Shown piece by piece: positions 41,027 to 50,427 of a DNA stretch of 64,000 nt. Origin of the DNA: Thermoproteota archaeon (lineage in GTDB: Archaea > Asgardarchaeota > Njordarchaeia > Njordarchaeales > Panguiarchaeaceae); assembly GCA_024720975.1 (NCBI GenBank), contig JANJXX010000001.1, forward strand, positions 159,408-223,407, read 5' to 3'. Numbering within the stretch: the stretch's first letter is position 1; every line of letters starts with the position of its first letter. The position numbers and the translations under genes were made by a program. Below the pieces are notes generated by a model. The model was not told where the DNA came from. It saw only the letters and a program-made list of their open reading frames with translations, and made no database searches.

Positions 41027-41225
41027 GCCCGTGTCGCTTACTTGAGTTTGTTCAGGTGTTTTCGATTATCCTGGGTATTGTCGACACGGGCTTCTCCCTC
41101 GTCACCTGCTCACCGTTCGCAGGGTCATCAGGAGCTACATCGACGGGCACCACTGAGCCCGCCTCGAGGTATACATATATCCCCCGCCTCTGATGGCTAC
41201 CCAGCCGTCATTGAGGCGGGAGAAG
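41027..41225 (-). ncRNA. Putative TnpB-associated omegaRNA (right-end RNA) scaffold
   Basis: Inverted repeats GCCCGTGTCG (41027-36) / CGACACGGGC (41082-91), CCCGCCTC (41183-90) / GAGGCGGG (41213-20), CTTCTCCC (41091-98) / GGGAGAAG (41218-25), at the tnpB 3' end where these RNAs are known to lie. Confidence 0.45.
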
Positions 41226-41542
41226 AGGTTTAGGCAAGTTACCACATCAACAACCTTGTATCCCCTAGCTGAACAGTAACTTCTTAGTCTTTCAATCTGC
41301 CGCTCTAAGTTACCATCTATTTTCTGCTTATGCGATGAAACCCTAGCGTATATAGCGGCTCTAATCTCTCTTCTTTCAACACCACTCAGAATCCTCTTGA
41401 CTTCGCTTTCTGGAACCATCCACAGCTTTCCAACTCTGAGAGCACGCAGTCTTCTTCCCTGCTTTATCCACTTTTTAACAGTAGAAACACTAATGTTCGG
41501 TAACTCAGCAACCTCACTAGTTCTATAGAGCTTCTCGGACAC
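41135..41542 (-). pseudogene. tnpA: Truncated IS607 serine transposase TnpA
   Basis: LYRTSEVAE..ISVSTVKKWIKQG HTH, AAIYARVSSHKQK..NLERQIERL. The rest of the catalytic domain (D..SG, RDRL) is absent. GTG start at 41542 after GAGAGGT. Confidence 0.85.
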
Positions 41543-41600
41543 AGCATAGTACCTCTCTTGATTCCAAATACCCATAGTAGCTAAAACAGCTTAAAAACTT

Positions 41601-42638
41601 TTACGACAGACACAGTCTAGTATAGCTAGATAAGATGCTTCCGTGGATTCTACCTCCTGTTATCTGCGCGTTGTTGCCTATAATGGAGTTTCGAATACTA
41701 CTACTATTGACTATAGAACCACTCATAATTAGCGAATTTCTAATCTCTGAGCCAGAGACTATTGTGTTCGCCCCAATAATTGCATATGGTCCCACAACAG
41801 ATTTAGAGTCCACCTTGGCATTTACCTCTATGTAGACGGGATTAATAATTTTGCCCTCTATTTGAGCGTCTGGGTTTACATAACTCTCAGAAAGTAACTT
41901 GTTAAGAGCTAAAAGGTAGCCTTCAAGTGAGCCAATGTCGAACCAATATCCATCGAATTTGTAAGCATACACATCATATCTTTTAGAAAGCCATTCAAAG
42001 AAATATCCAGGAGCATCTGGATTCCTACGCTCTTTCAAATACTTGCCGATTAGATGAGTCATGTCTTTAGGTAGTACGTATATGGCCGTTGCTGCCAATC
42101 TGGATTTTGGCTCCTTCGGTTTTTCAATGAAATCTATGATCTTATTATTTTCATCTAGGTGGACCTCTGCCAATCCCTTCATGGCTTCAAGTGAATTTAC
42201 CTCAAAAACTGCCACTACTGGATTTCGTACTCTTCTGTAGAATGCAAGAAATGACTCAAAATCTATGGATGCTATATTATCGCCTGCTACTATTAAAGTA
42301 TCTCTTGCCGGTGAGTTTCTAAGTATGCGTTTAAGGTCGTAGTGAATTCCACGAATTGCCCCAAACTTAGCGTCCTCTCGTATTGATGGTTCAATTATCA
42401 ATTGGTAGCGACTTTTGTCCTTCAGGCAATTACTGCTTGCGAACCAGTCTTTAAAGTATTTCTCAAATGCTCTGTTTGTCGAGATGTATATTTTTCCTAT
42501 GCACTGTAACCTGTCTATTTTCTCTAATGTAAACTCGATAATTCTCTTCTTTCCAAGGGGAAGTAAAGGCTTTGGAAAATCCCTCGTCACAGGCCATAGG
42601 CGCGTCGCAAATCCTCCGGCTAGTATAAGTGCATACAT
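41601..42638 (-). CDS. NDP-sugar pyrophosphorylase (glucose-1-P thymidylyl- or mannose-1-P guanylyl-transferase family) with left-handed beta-helix tail
   Basis: ILAGGFATRLWP..PKPLL, AGDN, FIEKP, WFDIG, hexapeptide repeats. ATG 6 nt after GGTG. Confidence 0.9.
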   Translation of the reverse strand: MYALILAGGFATRLWPVTRDFPKPLLPLGKKRIIEFTLEKIDRLQCIGKIYISTNRAFEKYFKDWFASSNCLKDKSRYQLIIEPSIREDAKFGAIRGIHYDLKRILRNSPARDTLIVAGDNIASIDFESFLAFYRRVRNPVVAVFEVNSLEAMKGLAEVHLDENNKIIDFIEKPKEPKSRLAATAIYVLPKDMTHLIGKYLKERRNPDAPGYFFEWLSKRYDVYAYKFDGYWFDIGSLEGYLLALNKLLSESYVNPDAQIEGKIINPVYIEVNAKVDSKSVVGPYAIIGANTIVSGSEIRNSLIMSGSIVNSSSIRNSIIGNNAQITGGRIHGSILSSYTRLCLS

Positions 42639-42647
42639 TTGAGGCAC

Positions 42648-43787
42648 CTACAACTCACTTTTTATTGATGATATCTCTTCAATGTCAAATGTGCTTAGGT
42701 TTTTACTGTCTGCTAAAAAGACAGATAACACATCAGCAAATATTGTTGGTATCAGCAATGTTCTCCATGAAAACTTCTCGTCGTCAATCATGAAAATATA
42801 TGAGTCTATGTAAGCTAGCTTGTTTGTAACCACGTCAAGGTATCTTCTCATTAAGGGCTCCTCCGAATTTCTTCTCAGGATTATGTTGAATACTTTTTTT
42901 CTATCGAGCCCGCGAAGACCAACTATGAAATTATGCGCACCCTCGGGAATCTCAAAGTAAGTTGCAAAATGCTTGGCATTTTCGTTTAATTGGGCAATAA
43001 ATCTTCTAGCTACGGCAGCAAGTGTGCGCTCAGCGGCTATTATAACTATTTTGTCCCTAACTTTCATGACTAATTCATAAAGCTTTTGAAACGACTCCTT
43101 TGAGTTTAGTTTCGTGATATAGTCTCGAATTTTTGGATCCTTAAGTCCCTGAATCTCTTGTTCTAATCCGAGGATTCTAGCGAGTATAGAGAACGATATT
43201 GCTAGCCCGTATGGAAAGTGCGATCTAGACGTGTACCCGGCAGGTAGTTTAATGTGATAGACTCCTTTCTCTTTGGCCATACTTTCTAATTTTCCCCCTA
43301 GTGAAAGTGCTAATAGTACAGAGTTTTTATGCGGATTTTTTCTGCTCAAAATATTGAAAGCTTCTAGAGTCTCTAGAGTGTCTCCTGAGTAGCTATAGAA
43401 AATATAGACATCATACGGCATGCACAAAATTTGCTTAGACGGGATATCGCGGTAAACATTCATTATAACCTTGGGGCACAAGTTAGTGTAAAACAGATAA
43501 TTGGCTATATATTCCCCAATTAATGCTGATGCTCCCATGCCGAACCAAGCGACTTTAATGTACTCTTTATGCGCTATTCCCGCTTTTTCTGACAGATCGC
43601 AAACTTCTGGGTGTTTTTTCGAGGCGTCGATTCCCATATCTAGGAGATTACTAAACTCCAAAACTTGCCTCAACATTTCTATGTTGTCTCTTACTGCAAG
43701 TTGTTCATACAAGGGTCCACTATAGACTATAGCACACCACCGCGAAGATAAAAAGAATGAATTCTTCCCTGCCTTGTGATTGACCAC
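42648..43787 (-). CDS. Bifunctional phosphoglucose/phosphomannose isomerase-like double-SIS protein
   Basis: GMGAS, SYSGDTLET, GGKL, LNENAK, PEGAHN. The real start is probably ATA at 43730 (see findings). Confidence 0.8.
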   Translation of the reverse strand: MVNHKAGKNSFFLSSRWCAIVYSGPLYEQLAVRDNIEMLRQVLEFSNLLDMGIDASKKHPEVCDLSEKAGIAHKEYIKVAWFGMGASALIGEYIANYLFYTNLCPKVIMNVYRDIPSKQILCMPYDVYIFYSYSGDTLETLEAFNILSRKNPHKNSVLLALSLGGKLESMAKEKGVYHIKLPAGYTSRSHFPYGLAISFSILARILGLEQEIQGLKDPKIRDYITKLNSKESFQKLYELVMKVRDKIVIIAAERTLAAVARRFIAQLNENAKHFATYFEIPEGAHNFIVGLRGLDRKKVFNIILRRNSEEPLMRRYLDVVTNKLAYIDSYIFMIDDEKFSWRTLLIPTIFADVLSVFLADSKNLSTFDIEEISSIKSEL

Positions 43788-43824: not shown

Positions 43825-44895
43825 TCATCTTCGCCTTAGGTATGCCTCCTTGAGGATGTTTAGCCAATTTTTAAGCAGCTCTCTAGCCGCCATGTCCTCC
43901 CTACATTTTTCGATGAATCTTGCTATAGTCCATTTAGGAAACAGTAACTTGTATGTAGGATCAAAGAGCATAACATAGTCTCCTCCGAATTCAACAATAA
44001 TGCCCTCGGCTCTTAATTTTTCAGCAATAGTTTGCTCATCCTGGGATAAACTATCTTTTTTTATTAGACCTTCATTTCTGAATCTCTGTATGAGATTGTA
44101 TACATCACTTCTACCAATGAGTTCCGGTATTTTTTCAGCCTCAGCTTCCCATGTGGATATATACTCTGAGACGCGCTGGGAGTATAGCTCTTTTAGTGCC
44201 GGAACTCTCATGATAATATCAAACTTTGTAGGTTTTCTTTTATAGAAAACTACGTCCGATATTAAATATACCCTCTCTACAAGAGCTTTTTCGTCGAATC
44301 TTATCTCTAATACTCCTAGCGCCGAGAGTGCATATGCATAACTGATTAGGAGGTCTCGTGTAGTTGGAAAAGATATTTTTTCTCGTGCCTTTCTAACGAG
44401 ATCATCTAGCGTAAGCACACCTTCATCTACCATTGTTGAAAGAATTACTCTGGCCTCCACATCCCTAAATATGTCTGCAATCCGCTGTTCTATTGGCATC
44501 TTTGTATATGCTAACATCTGTGTCCATATATCCTCCCATTCTTCTTCTGCAGTTGGAATTTCACCTCTCCTGAATAATCTTAAAGCGATTCTTACCAGAG
44601 CTCCACGGTAGGGCTCAGGTTCTTCTTTTTCTTCGAGGATTAGTCCTACAAGTTGTTTGAGCTCTAGTCCAGAGAAGTAGCATACAAAGTTGCGCCCCGC
44701 GTATTTTTCGGAAAAAATTGCATTTTCGGGATAACTAACAATGTAGAATCCTTCATGAGGTTCTTCTTCCTCCCTTAGTATCAGACCAAATATATCTACA
44801 ATAAGGTTCGGGTCAAGATTTTTTTGCGGGTATGAGGCTAGAAGTCTAGGCACTCCTCTGGCCACCCACTGACTGACGAAAATTGTCTCCGGCAT
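43825..44895 (-). CDS. Putative longin/uDENN-like plus winged-helix protein (Asgard-type conserved protein)
   Basis: N-terminal beta-beta-alpha-beta-beta-beta-alpha pattern (W..RGVP.LLASYP; CYFSG; GLILE..EEP..Y..AL), then EQRIA.IF.D, EGV.T..DL and L...G.L helix-turn-helix/wing patterns. Confidence 0.6.
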   Translation of the reverse strand: MPETIFVSQWVARGVPRLLASYPQKNLDPNLIVDIFGLILREEEEPHEGFYIVSYPENAIFSEKYAGRNFVCYFSGLELKQLVGLILEEKEEPEPYRGALVRIALRLFRRGEIPTAEEEWEDIWTQMLAYTKMPIEQRIADIFRDVEARVILSTMVDEGVLTLDDLVRKAREKISFPTTRDLLISYAYALSALGVLEIRFDEKALVERVYLISDVVFYKRKPTKFDIIMRVPALKELYSQRVSEYISTWEAEAEKIPELIGRSDVYNLIQRFRNEGLIKKDSLSQDEQTIAEKLRAEGIIVEFGGDYVMLFDPTYKLLFPKWTIARFIEKCREDMAARELLKNWLNILKEAYLRRR

Positions 44896-45117
44896 TATAT
44901 TCACACCTTTAAGCACATACAAAACGTAGAAAAATACTTAAAAATTGCTACCATCGCCTTTGCGTAAATTCAGACCGTCCGAGGCTTGTTTCATTCTTAT
45001 GGGACCAAATGGAAATTTTAATTAAATTACCGTAGGGGCATGCAACACAATCTTATTTATATGTCCTCCTTTCTTTACTTAAGAATTTGGTAAGTTGCTA
45101 ATCAAAAGGTCTGTTGC

Positions 45118-46401
45118 ATGAGACTAGTTGGTCTTAATTCTGATCGCGCTTGCATTGCTGACATTGAAAATGACAATATTGAAGAGCTTGTGTATACAAA
45201 ACTTTCGGATATAATTATCTTAGACACTATTAGCAACAAAATCAAGCGCCAGATACATATAAAACCCCGAGCCATGAAGCAGAGGGCGGAATTCGATCAA
45301 GAAATCTACAGAGATATATCTACCGAAGATCACATAGACTTGCAAAGAACACCAAGCATTGCTGGAGAAGTTATATTAAAAATGCATGTGGAGGATGTTA
45401 ACGGCGATGGAAAACCTGAGATCGTGATACTTAGGGTGGATGGGATTATTGCATGCTATGATGTTGATGGACACGAAAAATGGTCCTTCTTTCTTGATCC
45501 ACACATTGTAGACTTGGCAACTACTGATAGAGGCGAACTTAGAGTAGTAGTGATTTCTGGATACGGATTTTTGTATGCAATTTCCATCGATGGTAAACTT
45601 TATAAGGTTGATCTAAAGGACTTCTCTGGCTCCCCCTTGGCATTAACTAGTGTAGATTCAAATGCAGGTTTATACGCAATACTTTCTCGGGAGGGAACTA
45701 TTCATTTAGTTAGGATAGAGCTTGCAAAGGAGGTCTTTAAGAAAGTTATTAAAGTGTCTTATATCGCAAATCTAGATTTACCCAAGCATGCAGAATCCAC
45801 ATCACTACATGCCATGAGTCTTAGTGGAGGCTCTACAAAAGAGGCACTTATTGCTGGATTGTCCGATGGAACAGTCCTAGTTATAGATCTCAAAAGTATG
45901 GAGATTAGAGCAAGAATAAAACTACCAGATAGAATAAGCCGCATATTCGAATTACCAGGAGCTGCAGATAACATTGGTATCGCTCTCGATTGGCTTGGCA
46001 ATTTAGCGATTATAAGAGACTACGATAAGATTGAAATGTATGAGGCACCAACAAGGAGAAGACTTGTTGACCTCGATTGCGACGGCACCGAGGAGGAGGT
46101 ATCAGTCTCTACGAAGAGTCTACGCATAAAAAAGCGTGGAGAATTGATAAATGAAATCGAGGGATATAGCTATATTTCATCCTATGCTGTCGATGATGTC
46201 AATCTGGACGGAAAGAGAGAGATAATTGTTGCTTGGAACTCCAAATCTGTAACAATATATGATTATTCAGGCCGTGTTCTAGATTCAACGAAAACTCTAG
46301 CAATTCCTAGGGCTCTCATGATCCTTGATATTAATAAAGATAACAAAAAGGAAATAATTGTTTGCAGCAACGACTCAATCGAAGTTTTTCTTATTGATTA
46401 G
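45118..46401 (+). CDS. FG-GAP/VCBS-repeat beta-propeller protein without signal peptide
   Basis: Five DxxxDxxxE(I/L/E) repeats: DIENDNIEEL, DVNGDGKPEI, DLDCDGTEEE, DVNLDGKREI, DINKDNKKEI. No hydrophobic leader or TM. Confidence 0.8.
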   Translation: MRLVGLNSDRACIADIENDNIEELVYTKLSDIIILDTISNKIKRQIHIKPRAMKQRAEFDQEIYRDISTEDHIDLQRTPSIAGEVILKMHVEDVNGDGKPEIVILRVDGIIACYDVDGHEKWSFFLDPHIVDLATTDRGELRVVVISGYGFLYAISIDGKLYKVDLKDFSGSPLALTSVDSNAGLYAILSREGTIHLVRIELAKEVFKKVIKVSYIANLDLPKHAESTSLHAMSLSGGSTKEALIAGLSDGTVLVIDLKSMEIRARIKLPDRISRIFELPGAADNIGIALDWLGNLAIIRDYDKIEMYEAPTRRRLVDLDCDGTEEEVSVSTKSLRIKKRGELINEIEGYSYISSYAVDDVNLDGKREIIVAWNSKSVTIYDYSGRVLDSTKTLAIPRALMILDINKDNKKEIIVCSNDSIEVFLID

Positions 46402-46422: not shown

Positions 46423-49400
46423 TCAGACACCATCCCTAATGGCGCCCTCTTTTGCCAGGGATTCTAATAATTTTTCTGCTGATATAATCTGTCTTTCCCT
46501 GACTTTGTTAATAACCCTCTTAATGATAAAGGCTGCGCACGTGATAGCAATGATGCTTATTATCGCGTAAATAATGTGTCCTCCTAAAGAGCCTAAACTG
46601 GCACCACTAGACAGAGCCTGCATACTTCCACTCTGCTCGGATATTAGCAGAAGATAACTTGGACGTGTCTTGTTAGAATCAACTAATAAAGCTGTTGTAT
46701 TTAACAAGATGTTGTTATCTACGAAGACTCGAATGTCATAGCGCATATTTGTCTTTAACAATACTGTGATATAAGATTTCCTTTGAATCGAAGTAACTAA
46801 AGATGTTGACTCATTCGAGTATATCTCAACCAAGACCTCCTTCTCTAAATCATTTAGGATATTTATGGATCCCAACTTTACTAGGAGTCTAGTACTGCTC
46901 TCTATGAAAGCCACATTGCCTTCCAGTAAATTGCCCATCATATCCCAAACACTAATGAAAACTGTTGCTCCTGAAAGCGTCCAAAACTCAATAAGGCTTC
47001 TTTCCGTTGATACAGTGTTGTTTATCTTCACTTTGACAAGTCCATTATTAAGAGAGTTCGACGAGTAGTAATCAATAATCTCAATGACCCTCTTACTAAT
47101 TAGCGCTCTGTAAGCTGCCAAGACGGCGCCTTTATCCCGGAGACTTTCAAATCTCTGTCCATTTAGTAAGCAGTCTCTCACGGAAAGCAGCATCTTTTGT
47201 TTAAAATCGATATTTTTCCCGCATATCAGTAGTGTACCACTGAGCGCATTAAAGCTTATGGTCGCTCCACTGATGTCAGGCCTTGAAATTGTGACTAAGT
47301 AAGCACTTAGATCTATAAATAGATGCTCTAGTTCTAACTTTGTTGGATGAACTATTTTCAAAGCTGCATCTAAACTCCTGTTATTTATAGTAGCCTCGAA
47401 ATATAACCCGCTAAGAATTGTCACATTATGTAAGGCTGGTTTGAGACCTCCTATAATATGCATTAAATCAAAGCATACCGTTAAAAACTTCAGGTAACTA
47501 TTCACGCAGCCCCAAGAGCTCGTTAAGCATATCTCACCCGTCGCGAAGTTTATGACTATATTTAATAAGTTGCTAGCATACTTGATAGCAACAATTTTTC
47601 GGGAATGGTCAAATATAACTTCGTGTAGGAATTTATACATACAGCCAGTAAGAAAATCGAGTACGCGTATCGAATGCCTGAATATTTGGGACGCTTCCAT
47701 GAGTGCATTAACTATAGCCATTTGAGACTGATTTAGCTTAATGTAGTTTGGGCCGGAATCGTCTACATAGCTCAACCATCCCTCAGAAAAATTTATGCGG
47801 ACTAAAGTCACTGTTCCATAAAGCTTTACGTCCCCTACTAACTTAGTCACAAGTTCATCTAATTTGCTGAATTCGTATGCTAAGTAGTCACTTAGAGCTC
47901 TGTTACAGAGAGCGATTAAAGTTTCTGAGAATTGTATGGTGACCTTTGCTATGTCAGAGTAATTACAGGCACACAACATGATGACGCTCCTGTTCGGAAG
48001 ACCTGGATTGTCTAGTTCTCTATTCTCGACTAAACCAACAAATTTGATGCTGTCACACGACATGACACTTTCCAGGAAAGTCTCTAACGAGGTAACATCT
48101 ATCATAAACACTCCTGGCTCTAAGAAGTCAAGGATCATTATACTGAAGTTTCTTGAATCTGCTTCTAGGCAGCTTACAAGATAGGAGCCAGGCGATAATA
48201 CCAGGATCTTATTTCCAATTGTTTCTGATTCAAGCTTAAGACTTCTGTTCGGTGTTGATATGTAGAGCTCTTTCTTCGTGTTCCTACTATTCAGTAGTTT
48301 TATCACAGGTGTGCCTATATCGATAGTTACGTTAAAGCTACTCAGATTATTTAGGTCATTTTTAAGATAGAATGCTTCACTACCAAACTCATCAAAAATT
48401 CTGATCTCTACTATCGAATTTGGAGAAACAGTTATTTTTGACTCATTGAGTTTTCGCCAGGGAGTATCTATTAACTGGTATGTTATATTACATATCAGTG
48501 TACTTTCACTGATCTCAAGCGGGAAAATTTGTTGATCAATACTTTGGCTCCAGGACGCTACTGATATCTCGATGCCTGTTATGTTGCCAGCTGCTAGAGC
48601 CATATGCCAGCCAGATTTCATGAGATCAAAATCCACATCGACACTTGCTGTTAAACGCAAATTATCACTGCAAAAGAATGTATCAACATAAAGCTTAGCT
48701 AAGAGAGGCACAGCCTTAAAGGCTAGTATGTGATCAAGAGGATATCTAACATTTTCGTCGTAGTTCACATAGAGTAGTTTATCTGACCCATATCTCCTCT
48801 GTACGATCCTGATTTCAACCATACCTGACTGAATATCTTTCCTTAGAGTTAACTTTACGAAGTTTCCGCCATCTACATAAATAGGGTAGTACTCTACGAA
48901 CCAATATTCATTGAAGACCAGATACGAAGAAACACGGAAAACTCCTTCTGTAGTGCCACTGATACAGCCCAAGAAGATTGCCTTGGAGTATACAGGACTT
49001 ACTGAGTCCTGAAGAAATACTGCAGCAGTTCCCGAGTACTCATAGAATCTTGTAGATACGGATCCTTCAATTGCCATCCACAAGGATGAGCTTGCTATAT
49101 CTCTTAGTGAGTACCCAAAGCTACTTGCTGATAAGTTCTCGTGGGAGTTTATTGGCGCTCCTCCATAGCGAATCAATACAGGTTGCTTAGAAAAAGCCTG
49201 CATATGTGGGATTTTTAGGTAAAACGTTGCATCTCTTCCATCCCAACTTCGAAGATAGCTGCTAAGTTTTACTATTTGCGTTCCATTAATTATATAAAAG
49301 CACACGTCACCTAGGGTTTTATCAACTGAGAGCATGTTTATCCAACTGTTATTCACAACTACTTTAACGGGAGCACTAAATAGATCGTAAGGGTTAGGAT

Positions 49401-50427
49401 TGTGTAATGTAATCCAACACTCGTACAAAGGTGCTTCCGTGTTCACGTTAACAGGTTTTCGATAAGTTAACCTGTAGGAGGCGTTAACATCCTTAATATC
49501 GATCTTATTTGCCCCTGAGAATAGATTCAATGTGAGCTCCAAGTTATTTTCAACGCAGTTCCAAACATCATACCCGGTGAAGTATACCTCTAATGCGCCC
49601 TCACCTAATACATGCATCGAATGCTCTGAGAAATTCCAAGTTGTCGGTGGACCATAAACCCCCTCTAACTTCATAAACTTCGTCAAGTTTTCCATAACTA
49701 CTTTAGTTGCTGACCAGATATGGTCTATTGCTAGCTTATAACGAAGTTTATCCGGTGTCTCCAGACGATAATAAAGGGGTAAACTCAGGGAATGCGTTAT
49801 CCCAACTAAGTGATATAAGCTCACACTGAAGTACTCCGAGGATCTGAATTCTATCTTCATATTCAACTTTGTGACTCTATCTGTGAAATTGAAGACAGAC
49901 CCATTGAAGTAGCCGCTGAAGGTTATGTTTATTACATCAATGTATATTCCATAACTTGAATTGTACACTTTAACACTCAGATATGAACAATTACCTGAGC
50001 AACAGAGTACTATTTGCCCTTTGTAAATCAAGAGGAAATCAACTACTATCTCTACTAGATAATTTCCAGAGCGATTTTCTGAGGCAAATAAAATTGTTTT
50101 ATTGTCAAATCTATGGGCGCTCAGTATGTCACCGCCTAGTATACGCCCAGTTTTTACCGTCAAATTCTTTGGACACAACTCATAATGCAAGGCAAGCCAT
50201 CTATCTTTTGATCCAACCTCTTTGTGTAGGGAACAGTGTACATCTGAGGTTGATTTGGAGTAAAATCCTGTTGCCGAATTTCCTTGTATCAAAGACTTTT
50301 CAATCAAATTTTCTTGGCCTTTTGAATCTTTCTCTATATCACCTAAAGAGCACTTACACTTGCAAAACGCACTTAAGAGCAGCAATTGAATTAATAAGGT
50401 AAACAGAAAAACCTTTCGAAAATACAT
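46423..50427 (-). CDS. Large membrane-anchored surface protein with DUF2341-like domain
   Basis: Signal peptide, many NxS/T sequons, segment ITLHNPNPYDL..DVCFY..SWD..ATFYLKIP..IRYG resembling DUF2341, C-terminal TM plus KR. Confidence 0.7.
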   Translation of the reverse strand: MYFRKVFLFTLLIQLLLLSAFCKCKCSLGDIEKDSKGQENLIEKSLIQGNSATGFYSKSTSDVHCSLHKEVGSKDRWLALHYELCPKNLTVKTGRILGGDILSAHRFDNKTILFASENRSGNYLVEIVVDFLLIYKGQIVLCCSGNCSYLSVKVYNSSYGIYIDVINITFSGYFNGSVFNFTDRVTKLNMKIEFRSSEYFSVSLYHLVGITHSLSLPLYYRLETPDKLRYKLAIDHIWSATKVVMENLTKFMKLEGVYGPPTTWNFSEHSMHVLGEGALEVYFTGYDVWNCVENNLELTLNLFSGANKIDIKDVNASYRLTYRKPVNVNTEAPLYECWITLHNPNPYDLFSAPVKVVVNNSWINMLSVDKTLGDVCFYIINGTQIVKLSSYLRSWDGRDATFYLKIPHMQAFSKQPVLIRYGGAPINSHENLSASSFGYSLRDIASSSLWMAIEGSVSTRFYEYSGTAAVFLQDSVSPVYSKAIFLGCISGTTEGVFRVSSYLVFNEYWFVEYYPIYVDGGNFVKLTLRKDIQSGMVEIRIVQRRYGSDKLLYVNYDENVRYPLDHILAFKAVPLLAKLYVDTFFCSDNLRLTASVDVDFDLMKSGWHMALAAGNITGIEISVASWSQSIDQQIFPLEISESTLICNITYQLIDTPWRKLNESKITVSPNSIVEIRIFDEFGSEAFYLKNDLNNLSSFNVTIDIGTPVIKLLNSRNTKKELYISTPNRSLKLESETIGNKILVLSPGSYLVSCLEADSRNFSIMILDFLEPGVFMIDVTSLETFLESVMSCDSIKFVGLVENRELDNPGLPNRSVIMLCACNYSDIAKVTIQFSETLIALCNRALSDYLAYEFSKLDELVTKLVGDVKLYGTVTLVRINFSEGWLSYVDDSGPNYIKLNQSQMAIVNALMEASQIFRHSIRVLDFLTGCMYKFLHEVIFDHSRKIVAIKYASNLLNIVINFATGEICLTSSWGCVNSYLKFLTVCFDLMHIIGGLKPALHNVTILSGLYFEATINNRSLDAALKIVHPTKLELEHLFIDLSAYLVTISRPDISGATISFNALSGTLLICGKNIDFKQKMLLSVRDCLLNGQRFESLRDKGAVLAAYRALISKRVIEIIDYYSSNSLNNGLVKVKINNTVSTERSLIEFWTLSGATVFISVWDMMGNLLEGNVAFIESSTRLLVKLGSINILNDLEKEVLVEIYSNESTSLVTSIQRKSYITVLLKTNMRYDIRVFVDNNILLNTTALLVDSNKTRPSYLLLISEQSGSMQALSSGASLGSLGGHIIYAIISIIAITCAAFIIKRVINKVRERQIISAEKLLESLAKEGAIRDGV

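Follow-up and report, generated by a model that had tools for sequence, protein, structure and literature searches.

A longin–winged-helix protein encoded beside a beta-propeller in a Njordarchaeota genome, and its Asgard-wide family

Two genes standing head to head in the genome of an Asgard archaeon raise the question of whether parts of two eukaryotic complexes, GATOR1 and KICSTOR, were already paired in archaea. The genes, P0001 and P0002, lie in a 64,000-nucleotide stretch (hereafter the window) of contig JANJXX010000001.1 of assembly GCA_024720975.1; the source genome (G000) is a metagenome-assembled genome (MAG) of Candidatus Njordarchaeota (Asgard), of 1.36 Mb and 81% complete. A reading of the sequence alone had proposed that they might be a co-regulated precursor of a scaffold regulating a small GTPase, P0001 resembling NPRL2 of GATOR1 and P0002 resembling ITFG2 of KICSTOR. 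Our analysis leads to a different answer: P0001 belongs to an Asgard-wide family of longin–winged-helix proteins that probably act as GTPase platforms, and in the same judgement P0001 and P0002 are not a conserved functional pair. The features of the two genes are as follows.

43825..44895, minus strand: P0001, longin plus two winged-helix protein (stop codon at 43825–43827; open reading frame, AlphaFold2 model and family search)
44500..44895, minus strand: longin domain, aa 1–132, with the W10..R13-G14-V15-P16 loop just before beta2 (VIA-align Z 9–10.9, motif column counts)
44230..44499, minus strand: winged helix 1, aa 133–222, acidic with an isoelectric point (pI) of 5.4 (structural Z 8.2–8.6 and computed pI)
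43936..44130, minus strand: winged helix 2, aa 256–320, acidic, pI 4.7 (DSSP of the model; ArsR/PH1932-type winged helix-turn-helix (wHTH) profile matches, E 2.6e-4)
43828..43935, minus strand: basic C-terminal helical hairpin, aa 321–356, pI 10.2 (model; W344-L345-N346 ... Y352 conserved in the Njord clade)
44896..45117, no strand: divergent intergenic region with AT-rich TATA-like boxes toward each gene (read from the letters alone)
45118..46401, plus strand: P0002, beta-propeller of FG-GAP/PQQ-like type, cytoplasmic, with about nine repeats and a helical insert of 30 aa at aa 53–84 (Pfam FG-GAP_3, E 1.7e-10, and model)

Open reading frame (ORF) calls and translation place P0001 at 43828–44895 of the minus strand (356 aa counted from an ATG) and P0002 at 45118–46401 of the plus strand (427 aa). 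The 222 bp between them agree with the spacing of about 220 bp noted before; the distance falls to 195 bp with an alternative P0001 start, a TTG at 44922 that would give 365 aa. The ATG start is favoured because the consensus N-terminus of the family is MP.G (M-P-x-G).

Fold of P0001

An AlphaFold2 model of P0001, built on a 60-sequence alignment (A3), has a pLDDT of 94.8 and a pTM of 0.89 and consists of a longin domain, two winged helices and a helical tail. The N-terminal domain (residues 1–132) has the order beta-beta-alpha-beta-beta-beta-alpha-alpha (DSSP: E4–9, E17–22, H29–42, E49–54, E69–74, E81–86, H95–110 and H117–130), and in the model it is a sandwich of the approximately 120–140 residues typical of the longin superfamily. 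In an exhaustive structural comparison, this domain matched more than 30 solved longin domains at Z 9–10.9 with 100–140 residues aligned, and these matches occupy the top 30–40 rows. The earlier description of P0001 as a longin N-terminus followed by winged-helix units is thus borne out, including the point that the N-terminus does model as a longin. The top solved match is NPRL2 (8fw5_B; Z 10.9, 120 residues aligned, root mean square deviation (rmsd) 3.0), followed by Gse1 (10.5), AP5 sigma (10.4), COPI (10.3), VAMP7 (10.3) and a Lokiarchaeota longin (10.1); sedlin, DENND1A, SRX, TRAPP, Lst4, Npr2, FLCN/FNIP and Mon1-Ccz1 also match. When the Foldseek list was re-ranked, NPRL2 chains took ranks 1, 2, 3, 5 and 10 (Z 10.0–10.9), with NPRL3 at Z 9.8. 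The longin fold is therefore firm, and the preference for NPRL2 is nominal, because its Z-scores tie with those of VAMP7, AP sigma and DENN longins.

Residues 133–217 match the winged helices of cullin WHB, RosR, MarR and MecI (Z 8.2–8.6), and residues ~242–323 give weak profile matches to ArsR/PH1932 wHTH domains (E 2.6e-4). The model and these matches give P0001 an N-terminal longin domain followed by two winged helices, which is how NPRL2/NPRL3 are built, with a longin and two or more wHTH repeats (PMC3747258). Whole-model Foldseek alignments of P0001 with NPRL2 chains cover about 290 columns at TM 0.23–0.24, and no whole-model match reached E≤0.001; VIA-align never aligned the C-terminal half to NPRL2, so that the C-terminal likeness is limited to ‘winged helices’. 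Membership of the NPRL2/NPRL3 families was not borne out at the sequence level: P0001 has no Pfam or NCBIfam family; NPR2 (PF06218) and NPR3 (PF03666) matched neither P0001 at E≤1 nor 60 family members at E≤0.01; Pfam Folliculin matched neither P0001 nor its family; and a profile of the longin domain (A6, HMMER) run against all solved chains retrieved no NPRL2 or other longin at E≤10, returning a spurious SusG only. As sequence-level homology was not detected, the likeness to NPRL2 is one of fold, of architecture and of a short motif.

This motif is the loop before beta2, which across the 60 sequences reads W(54)-D(40)-[ED]-[RK](46)-x-G(48)-[PAV], then Y(39)-P(59), the columns being W10 in 54/60, D11 in 40/60, R/K13 in 46/60, G15 in 48/60, P16 in 21/60 (P/A/V16) and P23 in 59/60. 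P0001 itself has W10-V-A-R13-G14-V15-P16. A GP motif just before beta2 has been reported as specific to the longins of GTPase-activating protein (GAP) type, namely C9orf72 (G38-P39), SMCR8, FLCN and NPRL2, and C9orf72 has an essential W33-D34 five residues upstream of G38-P39 (PMC12290439). The loop of the P0001 family lies at the position found in GAP-type longins, with the W-to-G spacing of C9orf72. From these motif columns, the family is a plausible GTPase-facing longin; any catalytic competence is putative. We accordingly class P0001 as an NPRL2-like protein, for which a role as a GTPase platform is proposed below.

Range and gene neighbourhoods of the longin–winged-helix family

An exhaustive profile search of 1.84 billion representatives (E≤1e-3) yielded at least 80 clusters at 50% identity, mostly of 340–410 aa, and the family is present in 26 of 41 Asgard genomes. 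Its ESM Atlas clusters are annotated ‘hypothetical protein’ and come from Promethearchaeota only; a related-locus search with alignment A1 returned four Njord loci only. Family members are acidic, with a median pI of 5.2. One family gene was found in the 81% complete source genome, and paralogues occur in same-genus relatives. In a maximum likelihood tree (midpoint-rooted, with some long branches), all Njordarchaeales genes form one clade (100/100), made up of a clade of paralogues linked to giant surface proteins and the clade of P0001; the latter is Njord-specific and sister to the giant-linked paralogues. Genes linked to a GTPase nest among the giant-linked ones.

These linkages emerged from a neighbourhood survey in which 19 further loci and seven sister-family loci were fetched and their ORFs mapped. 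A gene for a protein of 1.35–2.2 k aa adjoins the family gene on the same strand in 17/33 cases from seven GTDB families; the giant-linked genes belong to f1 and f3 (as paralogues), f5, f9, f12, f15 and f17, plus one further MAG. The linked giants have an N-terminal signal segment, 26–84 NxS/T sequons, one C-terminal transmembrane helix and a tail of 28–215 aa; their domains include Ig-like, CarboxypepD_reg and Invasin_D3, and they form a single connected homology network. The gene order is either giant, then family gene, or family gene, then a gene for a 137–161-aa protein, then giant. Giant-type proteins account for about 11 of 1298 crude ORFs (~0.85%) in the source genome, so that adjacency by chance is expected in only a few percent of cases.

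In one diversified lineage, represented by four clusters (P0046, P0089, P0084 and P0074), the two proteins are fused in the order ectodomain, transmembrane helix, tail of ~100–170 aa, longin–winged-helix module, and the N-terminal parts of the fusions are homologous to the giants encoded by neighbouring genes elsewhere (E 1e-33 to 1e-76). The juxtamembrane tails of the giants are basic, whereas the winged-helix units of P0001 (pI 4.7–5.4) and the family as a whole are acidic. In loci L033, L035–L037, L040 and L042–L044, the tail of the giant carries a basic helix, R-[IV]-P-x-x-[VI]-K-x-I-N-x-x-[IL]-K, directly after the transmembrane segment.

The intervening 137–161-aa protein is basic and without a Pfam family (L027:6620-7042 (-), L029:5876-6289 (-) and L038:6505-6990 (-)). 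It is conserved between Odinarchaeia-like f5 genomes and an f15 genome, G024 (phmmer E 1e-20), which suggests, at the level of sequence, that it may be a third component of the module in the f5/f15 subclade. Three giants encoded elsewhere in the source genome (C23:27185-32323 (-), C26:55058-59005 (+) and C8:10042-11406 (-)) are homologous to giants linked to the paralogous longin–winged-helix genes of relatives, with E-values of 4e-107, 9e-42 and 3e-19, respectively. The C26 giant runs into its contig end, so a second longin–winged-helix gene may lie just past it, beyond the assembly break. A 409-aa gene between two giants on contig C8 was considered as a divergent paralogue and rejected (hhalign probability 0.2).

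The second recurrent neighbour is a small GTPase. A protein of ~280 aa, comprising an N-terminal extension of ~120 aa and an Arf-like domain (Arf, E 7e-24), is encoded directly downstream of the family gene in G019, G029, G020 and G039, and convergently in G031. The small-GTPase connection suggested by the sequence-only reading is thus supported for the family, as a genomic linkage in other Asgards. The N-terminal extensions gave no significant hhalign match to the longin profile, and an ESM Atlas structure search hinted at a longin-like N-domain in the linked GTPases, at TM 0.32 only. In G020, three co-oriented genes of 180, 303 and 157 aa follow the longin–winged-helix and GTPase genes (L020:2474-4375 (+); also L021 and L028); the 303-aa protein has weak DUF742/wHTH matches and recalls bacterial conservon-type operons (roadblock / DUF742 / GTPase).

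P0002 and the arrangement of the locus

P0002 exceeds the cut-offs of Pfam FG-GAP_3 (PF13517; 41.8 bits against 26.9) and FG-GAP (PF01839; 28.1 against 22.1), and its model (pLDDT 89.3, 38 strands) is a closed beta-propeller; with a repeat profile above threshold and a closed fold, it is an FG-GAP propeller. Judging from the strand pattern and the acidic-loop spacing, the model appears to comprise about nine blades of 40 residues each, the N-terminal strand closing the ring and a helical insert lying at aa 53–84. D-x-[DN]-x-[DN]-G loops occur at aa 93, 318, 360 and 404, and the middle repeats resemble PQQ or ‘Cake’ blades. Neither P0002 nor its orthologues, which were found in the order only, have a signal peptide; P0002 is also without an N-terminal hydrophobic segment, and its ORF cannot be extended upstream. 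The earlier description of a 427-aa FG-GAP propeller without a signal peptide was thus correct. Its nearest non-orthologous relatives (P0018 and P0019) are secreted FG-GAP proteins with signal peptides.

The profile of P0002 (A2) matches designer ‘Cake’ and PQQ blades best (Cake10, E 4e-20). ITFG2 is its best match among natural eukaryotic solved structures (E 1.9e-6, profile positions 351–412 against ITFG2 residues 22–84), ahead of the weaker matches YesW (6e-5), CRTAC1 (9e-4), BBS2 (7e-3) and kaptin (1.3). Pfam Itfg2 (PF15907) scores 18.3 bits, below its cut-off of 27, and covers aa 399–419 only. Beta-prop_BBS7 (PF23743) reaches 36.8 bits over the whole protein against a cut-off of 27 but in 38-residue stretches only, the best of them aligning aa 84–121 with profile positions 219–256 of 299; BBS2_Mid scores 23.7 bits, below 27. 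Structurally, BBS1N (Z 20.9) and ITFG2 (Z 20.3, 273 residues aligned, rmsd 3.4) tie with RACK1, Lis1 and UTP proteins, and an exhaustive search returned generic propellers only, many of them at Z 17–21. The resemblance to ITFG2 noticed at first is therefore real as a best natural eukaryotic match, but it is confined to one stretch of FG-GAP repeat and generic in character; it reflects a shared FG-GAP repeat type.

Whether P0002 goes together with P0001 in other genomes can be read from the gene order around them, for which the remaining genes of the locus are needed.

46423..50427, minus strand (as P0001): giant 1334-aa type-I surface glycoprotein, tail to tail with P0002 (translation, topology)
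42648..43787, minus strand: SIS/bact-PGI_C isomerase gene, 37 nt downstream of P0001 (Pfam matches of orthologues)
41601..42647, minus strand: NTP_transferase, GMPPB-like sugar-1-phosphate nucleotidyltransferase gene (Pfam matches of orthologues)

The giant of the window has a signal peptide, 31 NxS/T sequons, one C-terminal transmembrane helix and a basic cytoplasmic tail of 34–37 aa. This tail (46426–46536, minus strand) reads K-R-V-I-N-K-V-R, or K/R-R-[VI]-[IL]-N-K-[VL]-R with its orthologues, a stretch related to the basic helix of the other linked giants. P0001 and the isomerase gene are probably co-transcribed within the genus; in L005 the P0001 orthologue and the isomerase gene overlap. 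Among the ORFs near the pair, none for a GTPase or a roadblock protein was seen, in keeping with what had been stated for the window, the whole of which was not scanned with GTPase profiles. Adjoining the NTP-transferase gene is a 146-aa ORF (41135–41575, minus strand) that encodes a helix-turn-helix (HTH) together with the N-terminal portion of a serine-recombinase-like protein, apparently a truncated IS607-type transposase.

Three same-genus loci preserve the order giant, propeller, P0001, PGI, NTP-transferase. The adjacency of P0001 and the propeller gene is confined to this one genus, and even there two genes intervene in 2/4 genomes: in G004 (L004) and G001, the propeller gene stays beside the giant gene and is parted from P0001 by genes for ATP-sulfurylase and phosphodiesterase. 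All same-genus loci keep the tail-to-tail arrangement of the giant and propeller genes. The orthologues of P0001 and P0002 in sister family f3 are on different contigs in all five genomes having both (G006, G008, G009, G012 and G013), and the propeller orthologues adjoin unrelated multi-pass membrane proteins; families f5, f10, f11 and f17 have the longin–winged-helix protein and no FG-GAP match. The conserved divergent synteny expected from the first reading was thus not found. On one side of the f3 orthologues of P0001 is an HTH/POR/AP-endonuclease block, and on the other are HEAT-repeat and XPB-helicase genes; POR and HTH/AP-endonuclease genes also flank the locus in the genus of the window. 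Because these flanks are shared, the giant and propeller genes look like a unit inserted next to P0001, or deleted in f3. In L049 (7422-8999 (-)) and L053 (6168-7028 (+)), a same-strand HEAT-repeat gene follows the f3 P0001 orthologue in place of the PGI and NTP-transferase genes; in L049 an XPB-type helicase gene comes next. We conclude that P0001 and P0002 became neighbours by chance of gene order within one genus and do not represent a GATOR1–KICSTOR-like pair.

Interpretation and comparison with known systems

From the folds, the range of the family, its neighbourhoods, its fusions and its motifs, we infer that the longin–winged-helix proteins bind or regulate a GTPase and dock on the tails of giants. 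The family consists of cytoplasmic proteins built like NPRL2/NPRL3, with a longin domain, two winged helices that would bind proteins and a helical tail. On the cytoplasmic side of the membrane they would regulate an Arf-like small GTPase or offer it a platform, in most lineages next to the short, basic tail of a giant surface glycoprotein that crosses the membrane once; one lineage has the module covalently joined to the giant, behind its tail. A duplication of the gene in Njordarchaeales would have left one copy with its tight linkage to a giant, and the copy in the window would have lost it; within the genus, this copy likely heads an operon with the phosphosugar isomerase and sugar-nucleotidyltransferase genes. 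P0002 is an order-specific cytoplasmic propeller, probably drawn from the ordinary, mostly secreted, FG-GAP/PQQ repeat stock. Its gene is still attached tail to tail to that of the giant glycoprotein, and the two probably arrived here jointly.

Several observations weigh against a GTPase platform of this kind. The longin Z-scores of P0001 fail to separate NPRL2 from SNARE, adaptor and DENN longins, and no sequence-level homology links it to solved longin proteins, Pfam NPR2 or Folliculin. The aspartate of the WD motif is lost in P0001 (W-V-A-R-G-V-P). The longin domain of NPRL2 has an arginine finger, Arg78; the candidate in P0001, R68 just before beta4, is present in 10/60 sequences, all in the Njord clade. 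The lineage of P0001 is the least well linked, its sister-family orthologues having neither an adjacent giant nor an adjacent GTPase, and in the source genome the Arf-like GTPase orthologous to those linked to the family in other Asgards (278 aa with a ~120-aa N-terminal extension; contig C27, L046:7478-8314 (+); E 2e-42) is on another contig, unlinked to P0001. Furthermore, the giant of the window showed no homology by BLASTP, jackhmmer or hhalign to the other family-linked giants, with which it shares topology and the short basic tail motif only. A complex prediction for P0001 (A3) with the 37-aa cytoplasmic tail of this giant scored 0.00, which gives no verdict either way.

A more specific version of the platform reading holds that the family is an adaptor docking on the basic juxtamembrane tails of giants and coupling them to the Arf-like GTPase as a GAP, a guanine nucleotide exchange factor or an effector platform, that the paralogue in the window was released from this operon, and that the family is a forerunner of the longin GAP complexes (GATOR1, FLCN, CSW) or of longin cargo adaptors. 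We put this forward tentatively, as a speculative extension.

The main competing view of P0001 makes it a DNA-binding transcription factor in which a longin- or roadblock-like sensor controls two winged-helix DNA-binding domains and regulates neighbouring genes, the targets being giant genes elsewhere and the PGI and NTP-transferase genes in the window. Local regulators are typically encoded beside their targets, the winged-helix profiles match ArsR/PH1932/HlyU regulators (E 2.6e-4 to 0.02), and weak whole-model Foldseek matches include the sensor-plus-wHTH regulators CodY, CAP and SdiA. However, the winged-helix units are acidic, as is the family, the fusions place the longin–winged-helix module behind a transmembrane helix, and the family shows recurring linkage to the Arf-like GTPase and a loop motif of GAP-longin type; the winged-helix fold, moreover, binds proteins in NPRL2/3, ESCRT-II and cullins. 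We therefore consider DNA binding unlikely. It is less probable still that the locus is a genus-specific surface module in which the giant, the cytoplasmic propeller and P0001 cooperate, the GDP-sugar genes feeding glycosylation of the giant and the propeller acting as an extra scaffold. Such a module would account for the giant and propeller genes staying tail to tail even where P0001 is displaced, for the 31–52 N-glycosylation sequons of the giant, for the PGI/PMI-like and GMPPB-like genes that come after P0001, and for the resemblance of the basic juxtamembrane helix in the tail of the window giant to the I-N-x-x-[IL]-K motif of other giants. However, close relatives share synteny over the entire block, and common descent alone may explain the order; convergent genes are not co-transcribed; and the sister-family orthologues of the propeller have unrelated neighbours.

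The proposal from which we started, a co-regulated P0001–P0002 complex ancestral to a GATOR1–KICSTOR scaffold regulating a small GTPase, has in its favour the divergent genes 222 bp apart, two cytoplasmic products, NPRL2 as nominal top solved match of P0001, and ITFG2 as best natural eukaryotic match of P0002 (profile E 1.9e-6; structural Z 20.3, 273 residues aligned), but it is highly improbable: adjacency holds in one genus and is broken in G004, G001 and the five f3 genomes, the ranges are unequal (26/41 Asgard genomes against one order), the ITFG2 match is one repeat stretch that designer and PQQ propellers equal or surpass and that is on a par with YesW and CRTAC1, Pfam Itfg2 stays below cut-off, the structural Z ties with RACK1, Lis1 and BBS1, and, of the outcomes named in advance as telling against it, an unconserved pairing and secreted relatives of the propeller were both found, out of three.

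Returning to the GTPase-platform reading of P0001, the closest known systems are NPRL2/NPRL3 (GATOR1; Npr2/Npr3 in yeast). NPRL2 and NPRL3 each form a heterodimer with their paralogue, bind DEPDC5 and have GAP activity on Rag GTPases. P0001 and its family share with them an N-terminal longin followed by repeated winged helices, the nominal best longin match and linkage to a small GTPase, as well as a G-x-P or G-P element just before beta2, in the place of the GP motif of GAP longins (PMC12290439). They differ in giving no match to Pfam NPR2/NPR3 or, with HMMER, to the solved chains, in having no TINI/INT inserts, and in being linked to an Arf-like rather than a Rag GTPase; the arginine finger is not family-wide, no DEPDC5-like partner was identified, and most family members are wired to giant surface proteins, for which GATOR1 has no counterpart. 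With C9orf72 (CSW complex) the family shares the W-D-x-x-x-G-P loop before beta2 at identical W-to-G spacing (C9orf72 numbering as in PMC12290439), its consensus being W-D-[ED]-[RK]-x-G-[PAV]. However, C9orf72 continues into a DENN module and P0001 into winged helices, P0001 has lost the aspartate, and an SMCR8-like partner bearing an arginine finger was not identified for the family. P0002, in turn, is like ITFG2 (KICSTOR) and BBS2/BBS7 a cytoplasmic propeller with D-x-[DN]-x-[DN]-G loops of FG-GAP type, and unlike them falls below the Itfg2 and BBS2_Mid cut-offs, has about nine 40-residue repeats and ties in Z with WD40 proteins. ITFG2 is partnered in KICSTOR by KPTN, SZT2 and KICS2, and KICSTOR recruits GATOR1; counterparts of these three partners are not known here, although no search aimed at them was made.

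‘NPRL2-like longin’ proteins of Asgard archaea have been published: a family of the Thor and Loki lineages that joins a longin to the NPRL2 C-terminal part, two-component-domain fusions, and 15 longins of FLCN/SMCR8 type (Liu et al. 2020/2021, doi 10.1101/2020.10.19.343400; Traffic 2025, PMC12290439). They were suggested to act on Arf-related or Rag GTPases (doi 10.1101/2020.10.19.343400; PMC12290439), and NPRL2-like longins have also been used as a class of eukaryotic signature proteins (PMC9834061). The P0001 family is set apart from these NPRL2-like and GP-motif longins by the descriptions only, and may overlap with them. In the literature we found no description of a family with a longin and two winged helices, of its linkage or fusion to giants, or of a Njordarchaeota member.

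The longin-domain GAP complexes GATOR1, folliculin and C9orf72-SMCR8 are lysosomal, by way of membrane-protein anchors, and control Rag and Arf GTPases; the origin of this membrane wiring is an open question of eukaryogenesis. The coincidence of an NPRL2-like and an ITFG2-like protein in the window is not to be taken as a conserved complex. What is new here is an Asgard-wide family with the architecture of NPRL2 and a C9orf72-like loop, repeatedly encoded beside Arf-like GTPases and giant single-pass surface proteins and, in one lineage, fused behind the transmembrane tails of the giants. Together, these features define a candidate module of membrane protein, longin and GTPase in archaea that is concrete enough to be tested, and they connect it with the ‘complex surface proteins’ observed on Asgard cells in culture (PMC9834061).

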